Shown: positions 2,335 to 63,320 of the stretch, one piece after another | How positions within the stretch are numbered: position 1 is the stretch's first letter | How the letters are laid out: the number at the start of each line of letters is the position of its first letter | NCBI GenBank assembly: GCA_036172245.1 | Contig: JAYWIR010000005.1 | Coordinates: 558,001-622,000 of the forward strand | Direction of reading: 5' to 3' | Length of the DNA stretch: 64,000 nt | DNA from: Raillietiella orientalis | Taxonomy: Eukaryota | Program-made: the position numbers and the translations under genes | Notes under the pieces: model-generated | Seen by the model: only the letters and a program-made list of their open reading frames with translations | Told to the model about the DNA's origin: nothing | Databases searched by the model: none

Positions 2335-4400
2335 CTAAGCAGCGGTCCTAAATCTGTGCGCGGTACATGTGAATTTTAGTCGTCTCGTTGCCTGTAGGTC
2401 TGATGCCGTCCCCACCACAAGGAAAATGGCGTTGAGAGCTTCCCGTTCAGCCTGGGCACCGCGTGCTCGCTCGCACCAAACGCAGGTTAAGTGCAGTGAC
2501 GCCCCAGCCTGCTGGTTTCCCACCACTTGAGCACTCGACGTCCCAGGTTTCGATCCAGGGGCCGAACTGATTGCCTCCCGAAGTTTCTGTACCTTCGGCG
2601 GGCGGGCAGCCACCCAGTACTCCCGCCCGTTACTACGCGCGGAACAAAGTGATAGTTTGTAGCATATAGTAGCGAGTGCTGTCGGTCCGCTTCCGGCGTA
2701 CAACGGGAGACCGGTCGCCGCGACTTCGGAAACCGACCTCCCCGGGGGGCATGTGGAGTTTTCGGAACGCTTCCCCCAAAGTGCGCGTTTCGTGTTTCCG
2801 CGCTGCCCCACAGTGTTCGGCTGCGGGATTCATTGTGGACGGGGCCACCGTCAGGTTTCGTGTCTTGCGACGTCCTTCCCCCGCGAGTTGTCTTGCAAAC
2901 TTCGACCGGATTGCACGCAGACACGAGTGGGTGTAGAAACCACCGTACCTGCGTGCGTGCCTCGAGGCTCTGTTGTCAGCGCGCCACGAGCAAGGAAACG
3001 GAAAGCGTGTCTGCCCTTCCCAAAGAAACGGAATAGACGGACTTCATCGTCATTTGACCTTTAGATTGTTCGCCTTCGGTGGCAGTCCGAATATCTCGTT
3101 CTGATGGAGCACTCTTTGAAATGTGACTTGGCTCACGGGAAAAGAACCAGCTTAGCTCAAACATGTTATTATCTTTGGAAGCCATTTCTCTATCCTGTTT
3201 TAATCGGGAATGCCCGGTTAGGTTTCAGTTCTTTCGCCTTCCTACCTTCAGTTAGGTTTTGCCGCAAAGATGGTCCGGAAGCAAGTGGAGACGATTTCTG
3301 CTTTTCTGAAGAATCCGTGGCATGGAGCGATGGCAGGACTGCAAGTTCTCCAAGAGGTTGTCTTACCGTTTACTTTCCATCACTTTTTGGGGAATGGACG
3401 CATGAAAACCACGAACGTTATTTCAGTGAAATAGAAGCACTTTTATTCATTTTTTCTTTTTTCCAAAATGTCCTGTGTGCTTGTAGTCATACTTATACAA
3501 CATTCTCAAAATCTAAACCCAACATCTGCTAGCGCTTCCTCTAGCAAACAGAGAAAGGGGTTGCAATTAGTGATACCTTAAAGGGCCTCTTCTATGGAAT
3601 GATTTGTGAGTCACTGGTTGAGCCAAGTTGGTGACCAGTCACTGCTATTCGGAGGCCGGGTTTGTATCCAGAAAGAAGTGTGCATCTTGCAGTTGAATCG
3701 AACTGTCACAAGCGCAATGGCATTGAAAGGTCACCGAAGCAAATTCGCCCGCGTCAGAAGCCGTGTGGTTGCGGTGGTCTCCGGGCGTGGCACCATGCGT
3801 CGTAAGTTCAAACGCTCCCAAGCAATCGACGCAGTGAGTCGTGGGTCCCGAGTTCACCCCACAAGATGACGCTGGTTGGCCTATATTCATCCAGGTGCGG
3901 CACTGGTAGCGGCTAAAACCGGATGCCCCCGATGAGGGTTGGGACAAATAGGAGTCGACCTCCGGGTCCTTCCAAGAATCACAGAGTGGGGAGTTCCCCC
4001 CGGTTGCAAAGAAGTGGACCCCCCATTCTGGGGGGACCCTCCGCGTCGTACTGATGGAGTAGGTGGGTTGCCACCACCTCTCCAGAGAGTGCAGAGAAGC
4101 GAGTCGATCCCTTCAGAGAAGCTGCGTCCTTCTGAATTTCGGAAGCGTCCCTTCCGGGTTCTCTTCAGAGGAGTAAAAACAGGAGCGGATCCCTCCAAGA
4201 ATCTCTTCGGAGAGAATAAGGAAAGAGATTCTCTGCTTGATTCCCATTCGGAGACAACCAGGGTGGAGTTGATCTCCATTTCCGGGAATCCTTCCCTAGG
4301 CGTGAGAGGAACGGACTCCGAGTCCTTCCTGGATTCATAGGGTGGACCCCTCCAGGGGTACCCCTTATCTTGAAGAATTACCCACCTTCGGACGGCGTGT
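2335..4400. mobile_element. GC-richer decayed repeat-like sequence, possibly ORF1-region remnants of a non-LTR retrotransposon
   Basis: Abrupt GC increase relative to the flanks and broken ORFs with only faint ORF1-like segments (e.g. AGFIVDGATVRFRVL). It lies upstream of a recognisable LINE copy. No diagnostic motif is intact. Confidence 0.25.
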
Positions 4401-7283: not shown

Positions 7284-8479
7284 CCTCGCCTTCCAAGTAC
7301 TGTACGTCCACTATAGGGAGCCAATGATTTCCATTCGTATCATACTTTCTGGAACGTTCCATTTTACATATTCTGAACTGTGCAGCACGTCCATAATGGA
7401 AATGTTTTTTCCCACTGAAATAATAGAAACCTCTACACGTGATTCATTATTCCAGCTTCCACGCATCTTCCAAGAGGAGCCGACTGTTGGAGAGACGTCC
7501 ACATTTCTCAAGATGGCGCGGATTCTCTGCAGTCCTGCTTGAAGTTTGCACCTCAGTAGAAAGAGAGCGAAGCAGTTTAGTCGTTGCTACTTGTTCTTAT
7601 CAGGCATTGATTCGGTACACAGTGCACTTTAACTACCATAATGGATCTTGTGCGTCTCTCAATCACAAGCTACAATTGTACAGCCTCTTTCGTTTACCGC
7701 ATTCCACGAGACGGTTTCAGAGGGCACTGCCCATGCAAACGGAAATTACGAAACATCCGCCAGCATTTATAATTATTTAAATCTGGACTTTTTGTCAATA
7801 TAAAAAAAATAGGAATACAAACAAACACGTTATTTCTTAAATAAAACTTTCACCGACAGAAATGGTGAGATCCGTGGTGGATAAATTAAATGAGGTCTTT
7901 TCCTTATTAAGGTGTCTGTTCAGTTTCAGTAAGTGAACTTGGAAAGATAGAAACCAAGCAAAATACAAAGCAATATGAGGTGAGCGAGAAATACGTTCCA
8001 TTGAGACTACGTTTCGAGAATTCATTTGCCTATTCGTGACACGATTACTTTCAAAAAGTAATCATATCTGTTTTACAACGAATCAAAAATCGTAAATTCT
8101 TCAACTGACTTTGACCTCGAATTTCCCGATGATCTCCTTTATAGAGGGTCTTTGAAATGCCTTTCCCACAATCTTCCATAAGAGTAGCTTTTTTAAAAAT
8201 AAATAAATAAATAAATTCGGAAAGCGTATGTACATTACTTTTATGAAATTCAAAGCGTAAGACACTCCTTTGTCAGGGTTGCTTTGTCACAAAATACTCA
8301 TAAGAATCACGAATTGATGGTGCGATAAATTAATGGGCGATACTATCATAAATTAATGGTGTGAAGGAAAGATTTTACACTAAATAAGAGCTGAAATAAA
8401 TGATCTGTGCAATGATGGTATCTAGCAATGACGAGAAAATCAGCATTTGCATTAAACAGTCAATTAAGTTGTGGATAAA

Positions 8480-36699: not shown

Positions 36700-37389
36700 A
36701 GTCGGTGCAGAAGGCGGCAGGCACTCTGTGAAGAGACTCGAGACGAACTCGGAGCCTCGCAAGCACAGCGGGCACTCCGTCCTCCGCTGCGTCAGCAACA
36801 GCGGCGCAGGCACATCGTTAAGCACCCGATGGACCCCCCCTCCTGCCCCACAGGTCGAGCCAGAGAGCCTCTCCGTTCCTAGATGCGCTCCGGCCGCACT
36901 CCTGGCCGCTTCTCCGCCCGCGTTTCCCGCTCCCGATGCATCGGGGGGCGCAGGACACGCGGGTCACACACGGCATCCCGGCCAGCGCCCCAGGAGCTGT
37001 ACTCGGAGTGGTCAAAGCCGACGCAGGAGGCGCTCAGAAGCCCACGATCGTCCAGAGCTACCAGAGGCGCCTCGGACGAACGGACAGACCTTGGAGATGC
37101 ATGCGAAAGCTTCGCGGAGGCATTGGCACCGGATCGCGTTTCTTCCACGGCGACATCTTTTAGACGTCCACCCACTTAGATGTCCCTGTGCTCCGTGGGA
37201 GCGGCCGCTCCGACGTCCTGGTCTTCATACGCACCCGATCAAGGAATGGGGGAGTCACCGACCTCCCCGTGATGTGGGGAGGAGGGGTCCAGATGCCCAG
37301 GGCGATCCTGCTCCCCCTCCACGCGTCCATGACGATCGCGTGGCCCGGATCCCCTCTCCCGGCTGACGTAGCTGAAGCGCCAGCTGGAT
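36700..37389 (+). mobile_element. Decayed LINE fragment, possibly the ORF1 end and APE-endonuclease start
   Basis: PDVLVFIRTR...WGGG...AILL near 37210-37315 resembles the N-terminal APE motifs (D.l.lQET, GVAIL). It is interrupted at ~37390 by the 3' end of an opposite-strand LINE copy. Confidence 0.35.
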
Positions 37390-40051: not shown

Positions 40052-40749
40052 CGACAGCGGCGGTGGTGGTGGTCACCCCGCGAAACCTGGTCGCTAGCCG
40101 GGGGGAGGAAGCTCTGTCGAGCGGCCGGCGGACGTTTCTTCCTCCTTCCCAGTTGGCCGGCGCTCCCGGGCGCGGAGTCCCTCGTCTGGCGAAAGCGGGT
40201 GGTTTGGCAATCCTGCTCGTCCGAAACCATGCCTTTGCAAGGAGGCACCGACACTGGGATCAGGCGGCGAGGAAAGGGGGAACACATAAATAAAAAGTTC
40301 TTTCACCCCACAAAAAGGTGCGGTCACCAGGGGAATTTGCCGAACGCAAGGTGAAAGGGATGAGAGGAGGGGTCTCCCACTCTGCCTTCCTGAGGGGCAG
40401 GAGGCGCCCTTCGGGTCATACTCTGCGGCATGACCTCGCCTCCGCAGGACCAGACGGAACGCGTGGCTACCATGGAAACTGCTCCAGCACCTCCTGCGGG
40501 GTCTCCCAGTCGGGGACGGTGGCGGAGCGAAGAGCAGCCGCTGAAGAGCCACTGAGTCCTCCGGGCTGCAAGAGAAGGGACTCCTATTGCCGCAGGAGCC
40601 GTGCGCGCGTCGCCACTGCCCGAAGCGGCGGAGGACCATCGACTCGACGCAGCAGCAGCTGCGTGGCGTCTACCGGGGAACTGGTTGACCAAGCCAGGCG
40701 CAGAGGCACACCGCGCATTCTTGCAAGGTTTCAGCGTGCAGACGCTCGA

Positions 40750-40872
40750 TTGAAACCCGGTTGCTCCGGGACGTTTACTCTTGCGAACAAACCTATATAA
40801 AACTGTGACTGTACCAGTAGTCCAGACACGCCCTAGATACTGTCAGCCTGCCTGGCCCCCGGTGCGCAGACC
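40750..40872 (-). mobile_element. LINE-derived 3' tail attached to the 28S fragment
   Basis: Minus strand GGTCTGCGCACCGGGGGCCAGGCAGGCT matches the LINE 3' UTR GGTCTGCGAACCGGTGACCCGGCAGACT (copy at ~42358-42385) at 23 of 28 positions. It ends in AGTAAACGTCCCGGAGCAACCGGGTTTCAA, like AATAAACGCCCCGGCGCACCCGGGTGTGAAA at 46155-46185. Confidence 0.85.
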
Positions 40873-40882
40873 CAATTAGTCA

Positions 40883-41703
40883 ATTTCTCCGGGCACTTAG
40901 GATCGACTGAACCATGCTCAAAGGCTGTTCGCATGGAACTTCTCCACATCAGACCTCCAGGATCTCACTGGAGTATTTGCTACTACCTGCAAGATCTGCG
41001 CCAACGGCGGCTCCAGGTGAGCTCGCGCCCAAACCCTTCTGCGCCCACCGTCGCGACCCTCCTACTCGCCGGAACCTGAGGAACCTGCCGTCCTCCGGAA
41101 CGCGCCCGGAAGGCAGGAACGGTTCTGTCCCGGCGGTTGGGTATAGGCTCGATGCTTGAGCGCCATCCATTTTCAGGGCTAGTTGCTTCGGCAGGTGAGT
41201 CGTTACCCACTCCTTAGCGGATTCCGACTTCCATGGCCACCGTCCGGCTGTCCATAGCAACCAACACCTTTCATGGGATCTGATGAGCGTCGCATCGGGC
41301 GCCGTAACCCAACGTTTGGTTCATCCCACAGTGCCAGTTCTGCTTACCAAAATTGGCCCACTGGGCGCTCATGGATCCGAAAGTCCGAGCTTCAGCTTTC
41401 AAGCAAGCCGGACTTCTCATCCATTTAAAGTTTGAGAATAGGTTGAGGTCATTTCGGTCCCAAGGCCTCTAATCATTCGCTTTACCTGATGAGACTCCGT
41501 TCTTTTTCCGCTCCAGCGACCTCCAGCTATCCTGAGGAAAACTTCGGAGGGAACCAACTACTAGTTGGTTAAATTAGTCTTTCGCCCCTATACCCAGCTC
41601 TTACGACCAATTTGCACGTTAGGATCGCTGCGGACCTCCACCAGAGTTTCCTCTGGCTTCGTCCTGGCCAGGCATAGTTCACCATCTTTCGGGTCCCAGA
41701 GTG
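40883..41703 (-). rRNA. 28S (LSU) rRNA fragment of ~820 nt, non-functional dispersed copy
   Basis: Minus strand runs from GGGACCCGAAAGATGGTGAACTATGCC through GGTAAGCAGAACTGGC, CCCTGAAAATGGATGGCGCT and GCAGATCTTG..GTAGTAGCAAATA to CAGTCGATCCTAAG. Normally invariant positions are substituted (e.g. TAATTTAACCAACTAGTAGTTGG for TAATCGAACCATCTAGTAGCTGG). No flanking rDNA. Confidence 0.97.
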
Positions 41704-44700
41704 GGAGAAGCTTTTCAGGGAGGAGGAGAGAGCACGCCTGGACGAGCCTTTCACGATGGGTGAAATCGGGAAGCTCAAAAGGCGGAAGTCACTGGGGGAG
41801 GACGGTCTACCCGCGGAGTTTTTTCAATGCTTCGCGGCGGAGCTGGTCCCCCTGGTACAGCGCTTAACGCTGCTGATCCGGGAGACAGACGACGCTCCCG
41901 CCTCCTTCCGATCGGCACGGATGCGTCTTCTCCCGAAGGGAGGAGACTTACAGAACCTCAGCAACTGGCGCCCGATCACCGTTTTGAACGCGAACGCAAA
42001 GCTGCTAGGGAAATTATGGTCGAAGCGAATGAGGCGGGTTTCGGAAAGCTTCATCAGCCCGGAGCAGACATATGCTGTTCCCGGGAGGAGCATGCACGCC
42101 AACCTGCCATTCGCAAACACCTGGTTCGAGTTCCAGAGATGTCGAATAAATAAAGGCAATACGGCCGGCACCCCGATTTGCGGGACGTCCGCTGGTGGCT
42201 CGCGGGATGGTTGGGAGCGAGAGGGGGCCCTCGCGGTCGCAGTCGATTTGCGAAAAGCATTTGATTTTCACCCGGATTTCTCCGGGTCTTTTATTTAAAA
42301 ATAAACTTTACAATAGAAATGTCAGTGGCTGCAGCATTGCTGCACGAAGAATCACGGAGTCTGCCGGGTCACCGGTTCGCAGACCGGTACGGTCCACCAA
42401 GATAGCAGGGGAAGGGGGAAAAACAAAAAACTAAACAAAAAGAAAAAAAGAGTGGGAGGGTAGGGGAAGGAATCACTGTTGCTGCTGGGACCGCATCATC
42501 CTTCTCAGGATGCCGGCAAGCTCTTGCTGCATTTGAGGATCCAGGTGGGGCCATCGCGACGCCCTCCTCAGGAATTGAGAGGCGTACTGGATGGCATCCT
42601 TATCGTGTGGTCCTCCCGTAGCCGTGCTCCATGCGGCGACAATCCCGCGAAGGCAGCACAAGGCGGCTATCGAGGCCGCTCGCCGAAGGGCTTCGTTAAC
42701 GAAGAGGGCTTTCAATGCGTCCCTGGGGTTGCCACAGGGGATACTGATGGCCGCGGCAAAGCGGAACCAAAGGGGCCGAAGGGCAACACAATCCACAAGG
42801 AGGTGGGGGAAGGACTCCCGTTCCCCACACCTTACACAGTTGGGATCGACCGCTCCCCAGGTCCAATGATGTCGGCGGAGGTTGCAGGGGAGTACCCAAT
42901 GCTGCAACAGTAGAGCCGACTCCTGCCATTTTAAGGGGAGGGTGGAGGTGTTCATGAGCACCGGGGGCCACTTCAGACGTTCAATGGGAACATCGAGCAG
43001 CGCGCCCCAGCGCAGAAGTCCATGGGGAGGCGTACTCGGGGTCGCAGCGTCCGTTAGCTGGCCCGTCTTCCACTCTCCTATCTTCCTCTCCCTTCCGGAG
43101 ATTGTAACTGTAACCTCCCACTTCACCGCAACATCGCTGTCCAGATCTTCCATCAGGGAGGCCAGCGCAGCAGCGAGGGGGGTTCCTGACCACGCTCGCT
43201 TCTGCGGATCCTCCAGGATCTCTCGGAGCGTGCAAGTTCTGTAGCACCCAAACAGGAACCGTCGTTCCTGTTGGGCGCTTTGCATGCCGCACTGTGCCCA
43301 CGTGAGAACGGTTTCCTGCAACCAGGCACTACCGTTCGCGGGGCGACAGGTGATCCATTTGTGGTTTTTCCGAACCAAGGCTGCCACCCTCCGTAGCTGG
43401 AGCCCACATCGGTTGATGCGGGAGCGATGGAGTGAAAGAAAGGACGTGAGTCCCGTCTTCCCGGTGGCTTCCTTGACGAGGAGACGTGCAGGGACGCACC
43501 AGCAGGTGCACCACAACTCCGGCACAAGTGCCAACATCCGGAACTGGAGCTGAAGCTCCAGCCACTCTAATGTCAGGAGACCGAGACCGCCGTCCCGACG
43601 CGGAGCGCGCAAGTCCTTCAAGCGGACTCGGGCCCTCCCGTTGCCCCAAAGGGCGATACGGAGGAGGTCCTTCGTCCGCTTTTTAATCCTCTCTGTGGGG
43701 GGGCAAACAAAAAGCAGGGAACGGAGGAGAGGAGCCGCGAACGTGTTCCAAACCGCGGCCCGTTCAGGCAGGAAAAACCTGCCGCCTCGGAAAGGGCCGA
43801 TTGCCGTCTCTACTTTTTGGAGGCAGCCGGACCACGCTTCCGCAGGGGAGTAGTCCCCCAACGGCACACCAAGGTACTTGAAGTACCTCACCGTGGGGAT
43901 CCCCAAACGGACCCAGTCCTGCTGCCCTGCCCACGCCGCACCAACTGGCATCACGCCAGTTGGTGCGACTTCGCCCTGTTCACCGTAAGTCCGGTTCCCC
44001 GATTCAGCAGGTCGAAGAACTCCTCGACCGCCGAAGCCGGGGTGGACATAGGGTGCATCAGCAGAAGGTCGTCTGCGTACGCTGAAACCGCCGGCGTACC
44101 GGCATTTGACTGCTTCGACCAGGAGCTCCTGCTGGAGCTTCTGGAACTCTTGGGCTTTCCAGCTTCTTTAATGGCCTTTCTGAGCTCTGGCTGGCGCGAA
44201 GCGCTAACGAACGTCTCTTTTAGCGGAAGAAACGTGTTTGGTGTGCCGGTGCGCCGCGGAATACGGCAGGGTGACAGCTTGAGCCCTTGCTCTTCAGCAC
44301 CTACTCCGAGCTGGTGCTGAGGGCGTACAGGGAGACTCTAGCTCTCCTGCCGCGCGTGTGCCTAGGTACACCGGCCGTGGCGTCGTATGCGGACGATCTT
44401 CTGTTACTGCTCCCCATGTCCACCCTGGCGTCGGCGGTCGAAAACTTTTTCGAGCTGCTGCGCCGCGGGGCAGGACTGGAGGTGAACAGAGCGAAGTCGT
44501 CCGTGGTTGCAGTCGGTTCGTCGTGGGCAGGGCAGCAGGACTGGTTTCGCTTGGGGATCCCCACGGTGCAGTACGTGCAGTACTTCAAGTACCTCGGTTG
44601 CCGTTGGGGGAATACTCTCCGGCGGAGGCTGCTCTGGCTACCTCCAAAAGACCGAGAAGGAGATCGGCCCGTTACTGGATGGCGAGTTTTTCTTGCCGGA

Positions 44701-46185
44701 ACGGACCGTGGTGTGAAACACGTTCGTGGCCCCCCTTTTTCGCCACTTGTTTTTTGTTTGTCCCCCACCCTGCGGTGTGAAGAGGCGGACGAAAGACCTC
44801 CTGAGGATCGCCCTTTGGGGCAGAGAGAGGCCCCGAGTCTGCCTGAAGGACCTGTGTGCTCTGCGTCGCGATGGAGGCCTCGTCCTCTTGACGCTGAAGC
44901 GGCTGGAACTGCAGCTGCAGTTCAGGACGCTAGCCCTAGTGGCACAGTTGTGGAGCACCAGCTGGTGCGAGCCTGCACGACATCTGGTTCAGCGAGCCAG
45001 CGACTGCGCGGGATTGTGTACCTTCCTAGCGCGCCGCAAACGTCGGTACCTGTTCCACAGCGGACTGGCACTTCGGCAAGTATCCGATATCCGATCTTCG
45101 GCCTGCGAACGGTCCTGTCTAGTTGCAGGAAAGCCTTCGCACGTGGGCCCCGATCGAGGAATTGAGCCCGGAGTTGCGGCAGCGACTGCTGCACTCCTTT
45201 TACAACAGCCGCTCACTGCAGGACATCATCGTGCAGCACGCATCGAGTGCGTGGGCTGAGAGGACCTCCCTTGCGCGGCTCTGCCCTACCTCAGGGAGCA
45301 CCTGGGCAGTAGTCAGCCGGCCAAGTGGGAGGTCCGATGCAGAATCTCATCAAGAGAGAGAGAACAAGGTGGTTGCACCACGGGCCAGCTAACTGGCGCT
45401 GCGACCCCAAGGACTATTGCGCTGGGGCGAGCTGCTGAACATCTCGCTGGATGTACTCGAGTGGCCCCCAGTGCTGAAGAATATCCGGGCCCTCCCCCTG
45501 AAGTGGCAGGAGTCGGCGTTTCTGGTGTTGCATTGGGGACTCCCAGCAACGCCCGCCGACCTCACTGGACGAGGGGGGCTGTGGACGCAAACTGTGTCAG
45601 GTGCGGGGAACGGGAATCCCTCCCGCACCTGCTTCTTGACTGTGTTGCCCTCCGGCCCCTGGGGTTGCGTTTCGCAACGTTCCTTGGTGCAACCATGAAC
45701 AGCTCCAGAGACGTATTGAAGCGCCTCTTTGTGCGCGACGCCCTTTCGCCTGCCGCAGCCCTTGCAGCCCTCTGCTGCCTACGAGGGATTGTGGCGGCCT
45801 GGAGCACCGCCACTGGTGGACCGAACGATAGGGACATCATCTGCTCCGCCCTGCGCTTCCTGAGGACGGCAGTCGGATGGTCCCATCTGGGACGTATGAG
45901 GACTGAACTTGCCGGCATCCTGGAAAGGATGTAGAGGACGACCCCTGAGGAACGTGATCCCTCCTCAACCCCCCCCCCCCCCCTGCTTTTGTAAATAGTG
46001 TTCTCTTTTTTTTTGATTCTATTTCTCCCTTCCCCCTCCGCTGCCGAGTCGAACTCGCCGGGCTGCGCGCTGGCAGCCCGGCGAGTTCAAAGTATTTTTT
46101 TCGGGCGCTGTAGGGACAATGGCCCTACACATGCTTGTTTGTTTTTTTCAGAAAAATAAACGCCCCGGCGCACCCGGGTGTGAAA
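41704..46185 (+). mobile_element. 5'-truncated L1/Tx1-like LINE (RT through 3' end), split by a nested insertion
   Basis: KSLGEDGLPAEFF, LLPKGGDLQNLSNWRPITVLN, EQTYAVPGRS and VDLRKAFD at 41704-42264. It resumes at 44102 with AFD..RGIRQGDSLSP, YADD, VNRAKS, FKYLG, GGL and the C-terminal CVRCGERESLPHLLLDC zinc finger, then the 3' UTR and hairpin. Several frameshifts. Confidence 0.93.
42265..44101 (-). mobile_element. Younger 5'-truncated LINE of a related subfamily inserted into the RT of the host LINE, 8-bp TSD
   Basis: Contains YADDLLL near 44075, a 493-aa open frame (42473-43954) with FKYLG, GGLGL and CVRCGERESFPHLLVDC, a 3' UTR, AATAAA, the hairpin and a short A tail. GCATTTGA is duplicated at 42257-42264 and 44102-44109. 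Confidence 0.95.
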
Positions 46186-47068
46186 GCAGCGGCTGCGGGG
46201 GACGGTTCCACCCACCCTTCTATCCCCTCTCCCCTCACTGGCTCCGCCCAGAGAGGAGAGAAGGAAGCGTGCAATCGCTTTTTTCTTCTTTTTTCAGGTG
46301 GCGCCGGGATCGGTTGCGCGGGAGACCCCCTGGCGTAGGAAGGGCTCCACCATCACCCGGCGACGAAGGAGCGGGTAAGCGGGGCCTGTCCCCGCGAGAC
46401 ATCCCCCACGACGCCCACATCCCGTGGTCTTTGCCAATGAGCCGGCCAAGCGGAAAGACCAGGAGGATCGAGGCCGAGCGGAACGAGAGAGCGTCACCGG
46501 CGACGTCCTCCAAGTCCCCAGGCGGTCCGCGCGCCCCGAAGGGCCGTGACCCCTTCCGACCCAGCGCAGAGTCGCGGAGCTGCGGCGGGTCCCTGGATCG
46601 GAGGGCAAAGGGCAGAAACCGGAGCCGCTCCGGCAGAGGGACTTCGCAGGGGCCAACTTCCGGGAACTTCCCGGAAAAGAAGCAACCTTTCTGCGCGTCC
46701 GCGTGTGCCCTTCGTCCAGGGGAGTCCCCGCGCCCTTCCAGCGAACCGCGAAGGCTCTCGCGCAACCGATTGGCCCGTTCCTCCCGCTTCGGGGATGGCG
46801 GGTTCACTCCCATGGGCTCCGGCTCACATCCCCCAAGCCCCAGCGCTTCCACACCGTAGGTGCGGTCGGCCGTCGCGATGCCGCCCGCCGGTGCAACCAC
46901 GTCCAGAACATAGGCCTGCCTCCACACCTCCCTGAGGGACACTCCGGCTTCCCAGGGGTGCCATGGGCGGTGCTCACAAGGACATCCATCCGTCTCGCGC
47001 CTTCCGTCGAGCGGCGCTGCAGAAGCGAAGGGGCCGGTGGAGAGGGATTGACTGGGGTGTTCCAGGGT

Positions 47069-51558: not shown

Positions 51559-54500
51559 TCATTTGATGTCCTCTTCCTCCATGGCTTCGTCCCGCTCGTC
51601 CAGAACGCCGCCACCCTCCCGACCGGGGGGCAGGCGGCTCGCCTGGACGGTGAGGCTGGCCAGCGCCGACACCGTGTCGCTGTCGTCGGCCGCCAGGGAG
51701 AGCAGGCGCCTGCGCAGGGTCCAGGACAACGTGCTGGCGTACTGCTGCACGACGGGCCAGTGAGCGGCCTGGCCCCCCGCCGCCCGCGTTGAAGGCTGGC
51801 CCTGCTCGGGGGCTCCCCTCGCTCACCTGCACCTCGATGACCTTGGTGAGGACGGCGACGGCGTTGCCGCAAGGGATCCGGTCCAGCTCGGAATCGCTGA
51901 GCGGCTGCGGGGCTTCCCCGAGAAGCGTCCTCACGCAGGCTTCCGAAGAATCACAGATGGCAGGGAGGTCGTACCCGCCTTCGAGGGCCAGGGCTATCTG
52001 GAGGTGGGGGAGGGAGGAAGGGGGAGAGAGGGCTCTCGTTCGGGAAGGGGGGAGAGGAGGTGTGCTGCGTGCGCGTACCTTCCCGTCGGCCAGCTGCATC
52101 AGCTGACGCGTCATCTGGGCGAAGCACGCCGGCGTCACCGCGTACCCGCCCAGCGGAGGGGGGTGCCCCGCGGCGGCGTCGAAGCCCGCCGACACGAGCA
52201 CGATGCCGGGGTCGAAGCGCTGGAGGAGAGAGAGAGAGAGAGGAAGAGAGGGTGAGGTCGAGAGACCGCTGGCGAGGAGAGGGTACACCTACTCTGGCGA
52301 TGGGCATCACCACGGCGTGGAAGGCGGTCAGGTACTCGCAGTCGCCCATGGGGGGCTGCAAGCCGCCCGACCACGCGATGTTGATGGTGAAGCCCCTGCC
52401 CCTGCTGAGGCCCACCTCGCCGACCGCGCCCGTGCCGGGGAAGAAGTTGCCGCCGTCGTGTCGGTGGATGGAGATGTACAGGACTCCGGGGTCGTCGTAG
52501 AAGATCTGCTGGGTACCGTTCCCGTGGTGGACGTCCTGGAAGAGCGGGACCGCGGAGGAGTGGCGCTCGCTCGCTCGTGCGCGGGTGGCGTCCAAGTACG
52601 CACCCAGTCCACGATGAGGATGCGCTCCACGTGGAGCTTCCTCTGCAGCTGGCGGGCCGCTATGGCGACAGAGTTGAAGTAGCAAAAACCCATAGGCTGC
52701 TGGTACTCCGCGTGGTGGCCCGGGGGACGGACCAGCGCGAAACCGTTCTTGACCTCTCCGGAGGCGACTGCGCGGGAGGGAGGTGGGGGTGGCGAGGAGT
52801 GGCAGCGGGTGCGGACTGACCTTTGAGGGCGAGGTCCACCACGCAGCCGGCGGCCACGCGCGCCGCCGGGGGCGTGTGTGTTTCGTTCCAGACCGTGTCA
52901 GAGTCCACGCCGATCCCCTGGCAGGGCAGCAGCACGAAGTCACGGACGGGCAGCTCGTGAACGCCGGACAGGTCGACCTTGTGGCTGGTGCGAGAGACGG
53001 AGCTGAGGCCTGGAAGGCGCGCGCGTGTCCGGCGCCAGGGCGAGGGGGCAGTAGGGGGAGGGGAGGTCGCGTACCGAAGAGCAGCGTGTACAGCTCTCTG
53101 TGGCAGGACTGCAGCTCCTCCAGGGTCGCTTTCCGGGAGCGCAGGCGGACGCAGCGGGGGAGGAGGCCGGTCTCCTGCAGGCGGGCCAGGACGCTCTGCA
53201 GGCGGCCGCTGTGCTCCGGGTGGGCGTTGGCGTTCCCGCACAGGCACTGGTGCTTCAGCATGAGGGAGTCGTACAGCAGCGCCGTGGCATGGGGGGACTT
53301 GAGGCAGCTCGCGGCGGCCGCCTGCGTCGGCGCCGCATGCTCTGCGGAGGAGCAGCAAGTGATGGACACCAAGGGGCTGGACAGGGTCCGGGCGAGCGGA
53401 CGGGCGGATGCGCCCCCGTCGGCGGCTTCCGCTGAGGCTGGCTCGCCTCCGCAGTATTTGACACCGCTGCTTCCCGCGTCGCCCTGCTGCTGCTGTTGGT
53501 GGTGGTGGTGGTGCTGCTGTTGCTGGTGGTGGAGGAGGAGGTGCTGCTGCTGCTGAAGGTGCTGGTGGTGGTGGGCCTGGGACGCCGAGTGCTTCTGGAA
53601 CTTGTGGCCCCTGCAGAGGAGGTCCCCGGCGTCGCAGCCGCCTTTCTTGTCGCCGCTATCGGTCAGGTCGATGATCTGCGGAGGGCCGACGCCGACGCTT
53701 CCCGCCCCTCTACTCTCCCTGGAGCTCACCACGGGCGCTTTCGCCGGCACTACGGAGTCGCCGCCGTCCCTCCTGAAGCCGACCTTGTCGGCGAGGTCGA
53801 CGTACTGCCTCGAGTTCACCCGGGTCAGCACTGTCTGCCGTATGTGCTGCTTGAGGAGTTCGTGCTGCTGCTGCTGGACGCTGGTCGCAGAGTGGGAGGG
53901 AGACGCGCCCTGGAGCAGTGGGTGGCCGAGGGGCAGCGGTGCCGACTGCGTGCGGCCCAGAGGGCGATGGGGCGGGCGTCCGGCCGCCTACCTCGGAGAA
54001 GCGGCGTCAGGAAGGGGGGAAGGCCGCCCACTCACGTTGTGGACGTCCGCTGGGTATTCGCCGTCGCCGGAGGGGTCCGGCCGGCCGTTCCTGTCGTGGT
54101 GGTGGTGGTGGTGATGGTGGTGGTGGTGGTGGTGATGCGCGCATGCCTGGTAGGGGTCGCCGCCGCCGCCAGGAGGGCCGTCCCCGGTCGCGCACTGCTC
54201 GCAGGGCACGCTGCACTCCCGGAGAGGCGGGTACAGGGGGAACAGGTAGTTCCCGGGGGCTGCCGGGCGGTGCTCAGCGCTCGACGTCGGAGGCTCCTCG
54301 GTGTCCATGACCACGCTCAGCCGCTCGACCTCCTGCAGCCGCGCGTGCGGGAGGAAGGAAGCCAGCGACGCACCAGCAACTTACCGCGTTGGCGAAGCCG
54401 ACGTGCGGAGGCCGCCCCAGGGAGATGTTGGGCAGAGAGGGACTCACGTAGAGAGATACCCGGAGGTCGCCCAGGCTGGCCTGCCTCGACATCAGGCCAT

Positions 54501-58800: not shown

Positions 58801-59988
58801 CTCCCCCACGGGCGCGCGGTGGAGAGCGCCACTTATTCCGTATGCATGCATGCATGCACCTACATGGAAACGTGTGCAGAAGCATTTGAAGAACGTATGG
58901 AGAAAGAGAGAGAGCGAGGAAAAAAAGTCGTTTTCACATACGGCATTTTGTTTTCATAAATTTAATGGCGACGAATCGAGAGGCCCAGGTGACAAGAAGG
59001 AAAAAAAAAGAAAGAAAAAAAAACGAAGAAATATTAAGCGCGAAAATTGTTACTTCGTAATTCCTCAACGTTTTTTCTTTTTTTTTCCTTTCATCCGAAA
59101 ATAGAAAATCGTTGAATGGCTTTATTTTGAACAAAAAAAAATAAAAGAGCAAAATTGGAAAAAGGAAAACAAGGAAAAAAAAAGAGGGGAGGGGAGGGAG
59201 ATCGAGCATCTTCCGGATTAATTTTTTTTGCCTTCTTTATGGAAAGGCAACGCAGGGAACGACAGCGGACTGTGAAGGCGCCTTTCCCACAAAAGGCGAA
59301 GCGGGCAGCCGGGCACGAGGTCGGAGGAAGAAGCATTTCGCACGAGGGGGGGGGGGGGGGGAAGGAGACTGAGTTGCGGTTCCTTCAGCAAACTCCAGCC
59401 CGCGAGGCCACGTGTCGCTTGGCCCAACGTGGGGTCCCCTGTCGAGAGGGACAGGCGAGGTCAGAGCGCCTTCGGAGCCGCACAGGAGACAGGTCGAGAA
59501 AGCGCGCGATTCCCAGCTTCAGAAAAATGACCTTGAGGCAAAAAAGGAATCAACGGGAGCGAACCCTGCGTGTCACTGTCGCCACCGAGGGTGGATGTTA
59601 GATGCTCTCGGGTCACCGCCGTGGTGACCCGACAGTGCCCTGTACTGTTAGGGCTGACGGCAAATTAACAAATGAAAACGCCCCCACGAGCTGAACGGGA
59701 AGGAGCGATCGCATGACCTGCGGGGTTGTCGGAAAAAACTGGTAACCAGGAAGGCTGCATTTCGGGGGTTCATCGCCTCAGCTCCCCAGCCACAAAGGGC
59801 CACGAGGCCGACCCTCGTCGCGTCCGCACAGATGAAATCGCCGAAGGCGTTTTTCCCCTCGACTTGCCGAGCCCAGGCGATCCAGCAGGAGTGCCACCGA
59901 CGATTTTGGGGAAAGCTGTCTGAAGTGATCCTGAAGGGGTGCCAAGCGGGAACGACTTTCCGCTCCCGGAAGCGCCGCGGGGCGGGCC

Positions 59989-62879: not shown

Positions 62880-63320
62880 CAAGCCCTTCCGCTCTTGCGG
62901 GAAATGCTAAGTCACCGAGAACTGAGCGGAGGAAGCGGCCGACTCGGGAGTCCCTCGTACCGGGAAAACACCGCTCTCAGGAGCCGTCGAGGACTTCCGG
63001 CGCCCGAGGGATGGGAACCCCCGGAGGAATGGAGAGATCCCGCAGGCCTGGTCCACGGGACGATCGTCGCACCGCAGGCTATGCGCCGCGGAAACGAAAA
63101 GCAGGAGGACCGCGGGAAAGAACCAGCGGCCGACAGGAAAGCGCGATGCCGCCGTGAGCCCGTTGCCGTGCAACGCCTCGAAGGAAGGAACTCCCCCCCG
63201 CTGGAGGCTGTGCAGCTGCTGCGTCCTTCCCACGCATTCGAATATCACAGGTTCGAATCCCCCCCAGGGATGCGTGGTGGGGTTCGAGTCCAGCTCGCAA
63301 GATGATGCTGGTCGGCCGGA
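62880..63320 (+). mobile_element. Highly decayed reverse-transcriptase-like remnant of a non-LTR element
   Basis: Fragmentary similarity to early RT motifs across frames (KSP.., GEIPQAWSTG, PVAVQRL, PGMRG..QL). A KAF-like remnant also occurs at ~59835-59960. No intact motif. Confidence 0.3.

Follow-up and report, generated by a model that had tools for sequence, protein, structure and literature searches.

A decayed 28S rRNA fragment fused to a LINE 3′ tail, probably a one-off chimeric retrocopy made by template switching

The window analysed here, a stretch of DNA of 64,000 nucleotides, holds the ORF2 C-termini and 3′ UTRs of four LINE copies that tblastn and Pfam place in one family, whose full-length relatives carry an APE endonuclease, RVT_1 and zf-RVT. 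LINE D, on the plus strand, ends near position 7285 and LINE C, on the minus strand, near 37385 (both from tblastn and Pfam), and the remaining two copies are nested one inside the other. The outer copy, LINE A, lies on the plus strand in two parts, namely a 5′-truncated ORF2 with the linker and the start of the RT domain (41717–42264; Pfam RVT_1, tblastn and comparison with its closest relative) and the remainder, comprising the rest of the RT domain, the C-terminal region and the tail of the 3′ UTR (44102–46188; tblastn and tail alignments); its open frames span 206 and 296 amino acids. The closest relative of the LINE A ORF is a 619-amino-acid ORF (P0001) on a JGI metagenome contig of 2870 bases, which is 73% identical to it, with homology beginning at 41717 in the linker that precedes the RT domain. 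Since this contig comes from an environmental metagenome, relatives of the host or of the LINE occur in environmental data.

Between the two parts of LINE A sits LINE B (42265–44101, minus strand), a 5′-truncated copy with a 564-amino-acid open frame that includes zf-RVT and with a 3′ tail of its own. LINE B is flanked by a perfect 8-bp target-site duplication (TSD; 42257–42264 and 44102–44109), and taking out LINE B together with one of the two repeats restores the reading frame of LINE A. The family is thus demonstrably mobile here, inserting 5′-truncated copies, and makes short TSDs that are still legible at this locus; LINE B itself looks like a comparatively young insertion. All four LINE UTRs share the same plan, with a GGTCTGCG-type box that opens a stem, a second stem and a T-rich stretch with an AATAAA-like word, and they close with a CCCGG-loop-CCGGG hairpin, which is followed by a short A-rich terminus and no poly(A).

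Immediately to the left of LINE A, on the opposite strand, lies a fragment derived from large-subunit (LSU) ribosomal RNA (40894–41699, minus strand; Rfam RF02543, 687–697 bits). The Rfam LSU_rRNA_eukarya model matched the minus strand from 40916 to 41753 with 687 bits and an E-value of 1.4e-184, and residue-level alignments placed the true 28S homology between 41699 and about 40893, the extension above 41700 being spurious because the DNA there is the antisense of a LINE ORF. These limits agree closely with the initial annotation, which had put 28S rRNA on the minus strand from 41703 to about 40883. The fragment opens at 41699 with the conserved block immediately 3′ of expansion segment D3, covers D4 to D6 and reaches its 3′ limit at about 40894, two bases past the CCUAAG motif at the start of D7a, beyond which the posterior probability of the alignment drops. 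Both of its ends fall inside mature 28S and it carries no spacer sequence, which fits what is expected of an RNA-derived copy.

No second LSU match was found with Rfam anywhere in the 64-kb window at E ≤ 0.1, and no 28S was detected downstream of the LINE tail described below, between 40300 and 40745, at E ≤ 1, so that the absence of downstream 28S claimed earlier holds at both thresholds. Nor was 28S found to resume beyond the 3′ end of LINE A. Within the fragment, one universally conserved block contains four substitutions against upper-case consensus positions, and a conserved marker of the 28S hidden break, at 40948–40931, carries two substitutions and a 2-nt deletion. To judge from these changes, the 28S copy is decayed and is no functional gene fragment. 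Mutations at conserved 28S positions also argue for an old genomic copy over a mis-assembled rDNA read, and an assembly artefact was ruled out on the basis of these substitutions and the deletion.

The 28S fragment is followed on the same strand, after 20 bases, by the terminal module of the LINE 3′ UTR (40873–40748, minus strand), identified with a covariance model of the four other LINE tails, a two-box pattern and alignments. This tail contains the GGTCTGCG box and its stem, a middle stem, a T-rich/AGTAAA stretch, a terminal hairpin (CCCGG-loop-CCGGG, 40770–40756) and a short A-rich end. The covariance model, trained solely on the four ORF-attached LINE 3′ ends of the window and searched with filters off, matched 40746–40880 on the minus strand over all of its 133 positions (1–133) with 40.3 bits and, on a rough calibration, an E-value of 1.4e-7; the training tails themselves scored 109–132 bits and the best unrelated match 11.7 bits. 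Similarly, the two-box pattern (TCTGCG, 80–110 nt, then a CCCGG/CCGRGT hairpin) gave four matches, the tails of LINEs D, C and B and the 28S-attached tail, and not one of 100 shuffled sequences contained any match.

The LINE tails are 50–64% alike in pairwise comparison, the 28S-attached tail being nearest to that of LINE A (63.7% over 113 columns). At this level of likeness blastn is blind to the tail, and accordingly a blastn comparison of the 28S-attached tail and both of its flanks with the window showed no meaningful repeats or similarity. The evidence for about 125 nt of local LINE 3′ UTR at this position is therefore stronger than the initial annotation had stated, given the full-length match of 40.3 bits and the two-box pattern, and the 23/28 match to a conserved UTR motif on which it had relied was not reproduced as such. 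Of the poly(A)-signal-plus-hairpin terminus described there, the hairpin was found, and the supposed poly(A) signal is degenerate, an AGTAAA-type word. Past the terminal hairpin, the 28S-attached tail (40738–40747) and the LINE A tail (46186–46195) have a AGCGNCTGC-like word in common. This shared word suggests that an element of their subfamily may end about 10 nt later than LINE B, and the true 3′ end of the 28S-attached tail may accordingly lie up to 10 nt further on, at about 40738.

Some 20 bases at the junction of the two parts (40874–40893, minus strand) have no firm match; the Rfam alignment of D7a runs into them with falling posterior probability. A short linker had been claimed here at about 10 nt, and a linker is indeed present, its length being better given as about 20 bases (40893–40874), which Rfam aligns weakly to D7a. 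These bases most likely represent the proximal D7a of the source 28S. Positions 1–8 of the LINE-tail model do not match the junction bases, which indicates that the LINE-derived part starts at the box (40873/40872), where the conserved module has its 5′ edge. An 11-base word within the junction (40883–40893) is identical to 42276–42286 on the minus strand, the 5′ arm and loop of the terminal hairpin of LINE B. This identity could be coincidence, native D7a sequence or the trace of a second template switch.

The 3′ limit of the 28S fragment lies in the region in which protostome 28S is cut. In the passages of one report available to us (PMC6925239), two ‘highly conserved’ 20-mers bracket the hidden break. 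In the available parts of that report and of a second one, the two markers enclose the protostome break, which in the species examined there had its centre at a UAAU at the end of a stem (PMC6925239, PMC4671170), and the UAAU is missing in many species that do have a hidden break (PMC6925239). The hidden break has been lost in some protostomes and, on limited data, tardigrades appear to be without it. At our locus the 28S sequence ends between the positions of the two markers, the first of which is present at 40948–40931 and the second of which is absent, and a UAAU occurs at 40878–40875, 2 nt before the LINE box.

At its other end, the 28S fragment meets LINE A head to head, with LINE A on the opposite strand and itself 5′-truncated, an arrangement that had been missed in the earlier reading of this DNA. 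Inspection of the sequence leaves 17 bases (41700–41716) between the two 5′ ends with no assignment. A continuation of LINE A to the left of the 28S-tail element, which would have made the element a nested insertion, was searched for by tblastn with 83 RT homologues of at least 600 amino acids (of 150) and rejected, all 113 matches falling within 41678–45236. Pfam likewise detected no endonuclease or RT to the left of 40746 among the 96 ORFs between 35053 and 47404. As LINE A is not continued on the left and there is no 28S on the right, the truncated 5′ ends of the two elements meet head to head. LINE A would then have inserted independently, nested or adjacent, or else would form the second half of an event resembling twin priming.

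We searched for TSDs in the regions 40725–40760, 41685–41760 and 46175–46250. Around the 28S-tail piece, LINE A, or both together (40748–46188), no TSD of at least six nucleotides was found apart from one non-adjacent 6-mer, in line with the absence of a TSD already reported for this copy. The shared words recovered, a 6-mer (40729, 41713) and an 8-mer (40733, 43227, 46266), come to about the number expected by chance on our own estimate. That the 28S-tail element has no TSD while that of LINE B is intact indicates that the original 5′ end is missing or that the insertion was atypical, so that the boundary which the 28S piece originally had on its 5′ side is lost or atypical.

Elsewhere in the window, a stop-free frame of 678 amino acids on the minus strand (51951–53987) resembles HDAC4 and contains a class IIa histone deacetylase domain (Pfam, E 8.5e-31). 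Among the 120 best matches listed for this frame, all those named by organism come from arthropods or tardigrades, and the list is headed by acariform mites, ticks and spiders, making a protostome host likely and, more specifically, an arthropod one probable. Its identity to these proteins is high over short stretches only, as expected for exons read through introns. ARAGORN found no tRNA genes in the window. Two exact matches to the tRNA-type B-box consensus (63250–63260 and 63281–63291, plus strand) lie 31 nt apart and may be a tRNA-derived repeat or chance. A weak, sub-threshold Rfam match to RNase P (58984–59096, minus strand; 34.9 bits with the gathering score at 100, E 0.07) is probably due to chance.

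Two further searches were made outside the window. Among metagenome contigs, the sole match to a pattern of the junction (CCUAAG context, 5–35 nt, LINE box) was one in which Rfam recognised no rRNA, and it was set aside as a chance match. None of the 22 sequencing runs listed contained half of the sampled words, each reaching at most 0.09, and the runs are uninformative on copy number, habitat and expression.

The best explanation of these observations, to which we give a probability of roughly 0.55, is that the 28S-tail element is a dead, probably one-off chimeric retrocopy that arose by template switching. The 28S sequence (41699–40894) and the LINE tail (40873–40748) share the minus strand and are separated by 20 bases, making this a direct fusion in the same orientation, and both the covariance model and the two-box pattern identify its 3′ part as a 5′-truncated LINE 3′ end. 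The initial annotation had proposed a chimera formed by template switching or from a read-through RNA, and of this the anatomy of a retro-copied chimera stands, with a sense-oriented direct fusion and no 28S after the tail. Orientation, direct fusion, the absence of downstream 28S and the absence of spacer together fit a template switch. 28S does not lie on both sides of the insert, as it would in an insertion of the R-element type, and no single TSD flanks the whole chimera.

In such an event, the RT of an L1/Tx1-type LINE would start at the 3′ end of the LINE RNA during target-primed reverse transcription (TPRT), copy the terminal structured module of the 3′ UTR, about 125 nt in length, and then switch template to a molecule of 28S rRNA. 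The acceptor would most likely be the free 3′ end of the 28S-alpha half, made by the hidden break in D7a, from which the enzyme would copy about 800 nt of 28S and halt just after D3. The product would be an element with the order 5′-28S(D3 end to D7a)-LINE tail-3′, which would have decayed afterwards. The template switch is an inference, as is, from the position at which the 28S sequence stops, the hidden-break end as acceptor, and we assume that the element is one-off. The exact retention of the conserved tail module would fit a selected, mobilisable unit equally well.

Fusions of this general kind have precedents. U6/L1 elements are bipartite chimeric retrogenes, R2 is known for template jumping, and stringent LINEs require a 3′ stem-loop. 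In the fungus Magnaporthe, the LINE MGL has given rise to 33 bipartite chimeras (WEIRD/MGL), which the available part of the report ascribes to site-specific template switching (PMC2104539). U6/L1 and WEIRD/MGL resemble the element described here in that an abundant cellular RNA has been copied into the 5′ part, a 5′-truncated LINE end makes up the 3′ part and switching takes place at preferred sites of the LINE RNA. They are flanked by direct repeats, whereas none was found here, where one copy is visible in 64 kb.

Chimeras of 28S and LINE-1 are also known from primates, where 18, mostly sense-oriented, have been reported and their formation during TPRT has been put down to RNA ligation or template switching, in those parts of the report that were available. 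As in our element, a 5′-truncated LINE 3′ part has a sense-oriented 28S fragment joined to its 5′ end, and such chimeras are rare. By the same partial account they differ in that the partner is a mammalian L1 with a poly(A) tail and that the 28S pieces are 50–482 nt long, often starting near position 3636. Here, by contrast, the tail is structured and poly(A)-less, and the 28S piece, which measures about 800 nt, stops in D7a, the place of natural cleavage in protostome 28S. Chimeras of 28S and LINEs, and SINEs derived from rRNA, are thus already in print. In the literature searched, mostly titles and the openings of abstracts, we found no such fusion with a structured, poly(A)-less arthropod LINE tail; in titles, abstract openings and passages of two papers (PMC3160391, PMC4671170), we found no retrocopy that ends at the hidden break.

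An unlikely alternative, raised in the initial annotation for the case of a multicopy element, is that the fusion gave birth to a 28S-headed, non-autonomous retroposon family, similar to a SINE, whose copies have been mobilised repeatedly through the retained LINE tail. Stringent LINEs, in the work on UnaL2 and UnaSINE1, reportedly mobilise RNAs that bear their 3′ stem-loop, and what has been kept here is exactly the conserved terminal module of 125 nt, from its 5′ edge. SINEs with LINE-derived 3′ tails are built alike, from a foreign head and the 3′ terminal recognition module of the partner LINE; their heads come from tRNA, 5S, 7SL or snRNA and have internal promoters, their families are multicopy, and the length of a SINE is typically under about 600 nt. 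Our element has the LINE-derived 3′ tail, with putative recognition by the partner LINE. It differs from such SINEs in showing neither an internal promoter nor, within the 64 kb, a multicopy family, and it measures about 950 nt as preserved, with its 5′ end incomplete, so that the short length of SINEs is not seen either.

Several observations weigh against a family of this kind. Among the five tails in the 64 kb, one is attached to 28S and the other four belong to LINE ORFs, the head of about 800 nt is far longer than SINE heads, and the copy is decayed and has no TSD. We found no match to the B-box within 40748–41716 and, for the A-box, one match with one mismatch at 41326–41336 on the minus strand, which is at chance level. 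Across the whole window the consensus motifs used for the Pol III boxes likewise occurred as often as expected by chance (19 found against 20.5 expected, and 22 against 23.7), and the head shows no internal Pol III promoter of the kind seen in SINEs. A low-copy SINE derived from 28S is known in mammals, SINE28, which is said to have been derived repeatedly from rRNA, according to the available part of the report (PMC4994717). SINE28 is, like our element, retroposed and has a body of LSU rRNA; going by that partial source, our 28S piece differs in being internal (D3 to D7a), in its LINE-derived tail and in having no Pol III boxes. We consider it more doubtful still that the locus is an old copy from an arthropod family of 28S-alpha-headed retroposons that captured the 3′ end at the hidden break and spread by means of the 125-nt LINE tail.

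Improbable, too, is an origin from a master copy in the rDNA itself, in which a 5′-truncated LINE sits in D7a of an rDNA unit and a Pol I read-through RNA is retro-copied, even though this would yield an identical final anatomy. Such a history takes two events, as opposed to one for template switching, and to our knowledge D7a is not among the rDNA target sites of LINEs. Arthropod rDNA is often targeted by LINEs, as tabulated in a review, and D7a is absent from the rDNA target sites named in the passages of that review available to us.

Two or more separate events must be held improbable to much the same degree. Either a short, 5′-truncated LINE would have inserted into a 28S orphon, a dispersed pseudogene already present, and the 28S downstream would have been deleted afterwards, or a piece of 28S would have come to lie next to an old LINE remnant. 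Insertions are crowded in this region, which holds LINE C, the 28S-tail element and the nested pair of LINE A and LINE B, and the missing TSD implies that at least one end of the element has been disturbed, which counts in favour of such a history. It would, however, require insertion on the same strand, a deletion ending exactly at the tail and the loss of all of 28S-beta. Moreover, LINEs of a family recognising its own tail at the 3′ end would presumably be poor vehicles for a bare 28S RNA.

The head-to-head arrangement calls for one more reading, which we regard as very improbable, namely that a single twin-priming-like insertion produced the 28S-tail piece as one arm and LINE A as the other. 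Both nicks of one target would each have primed a cDNA, and the two cDNAs would have been joined where their 5′ ends are truncated. The arms do lie head to head, with both LINE tails facing outwards and just 17 bases between them, and it is the LINE A tail that the 28S-attached tail resembles most closely (63.7%), with a likeness that runs a few bases past the hairpin. In the part of the primate report available to us, antisense chimeras of RNA and LINE-1 are ascribed to twin priming. No TSD brackets 40748–46188, however, and since LINE A still has open frames spanning 206 and 296 amino acids, a likeness of only about 64% between the tails is too low for them to stem from one RNA species. Also conceivable is a LINE subfamily that had captured 28S into its 3′ UTR, a reading for which nothing upstream on the same strand speaks.

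A single decayed copy changes little by itself, and the general phenomenon is known already from mammals and fungi. If the template-switch reading is true, the locus would be a genomic fossil of a LINE RT jumping from its own RNA to ribosomal RNA, an invertebrate case in which the LINE family recognises a structured 3′ end instead of a poly(A) tail. SINEs are supposed to begin with fusions in which just the tail module is kept, and the end of the 28S sequence in the hidden-break region hints at a preference for naturally cleaved ends of rRNA as acceptors.
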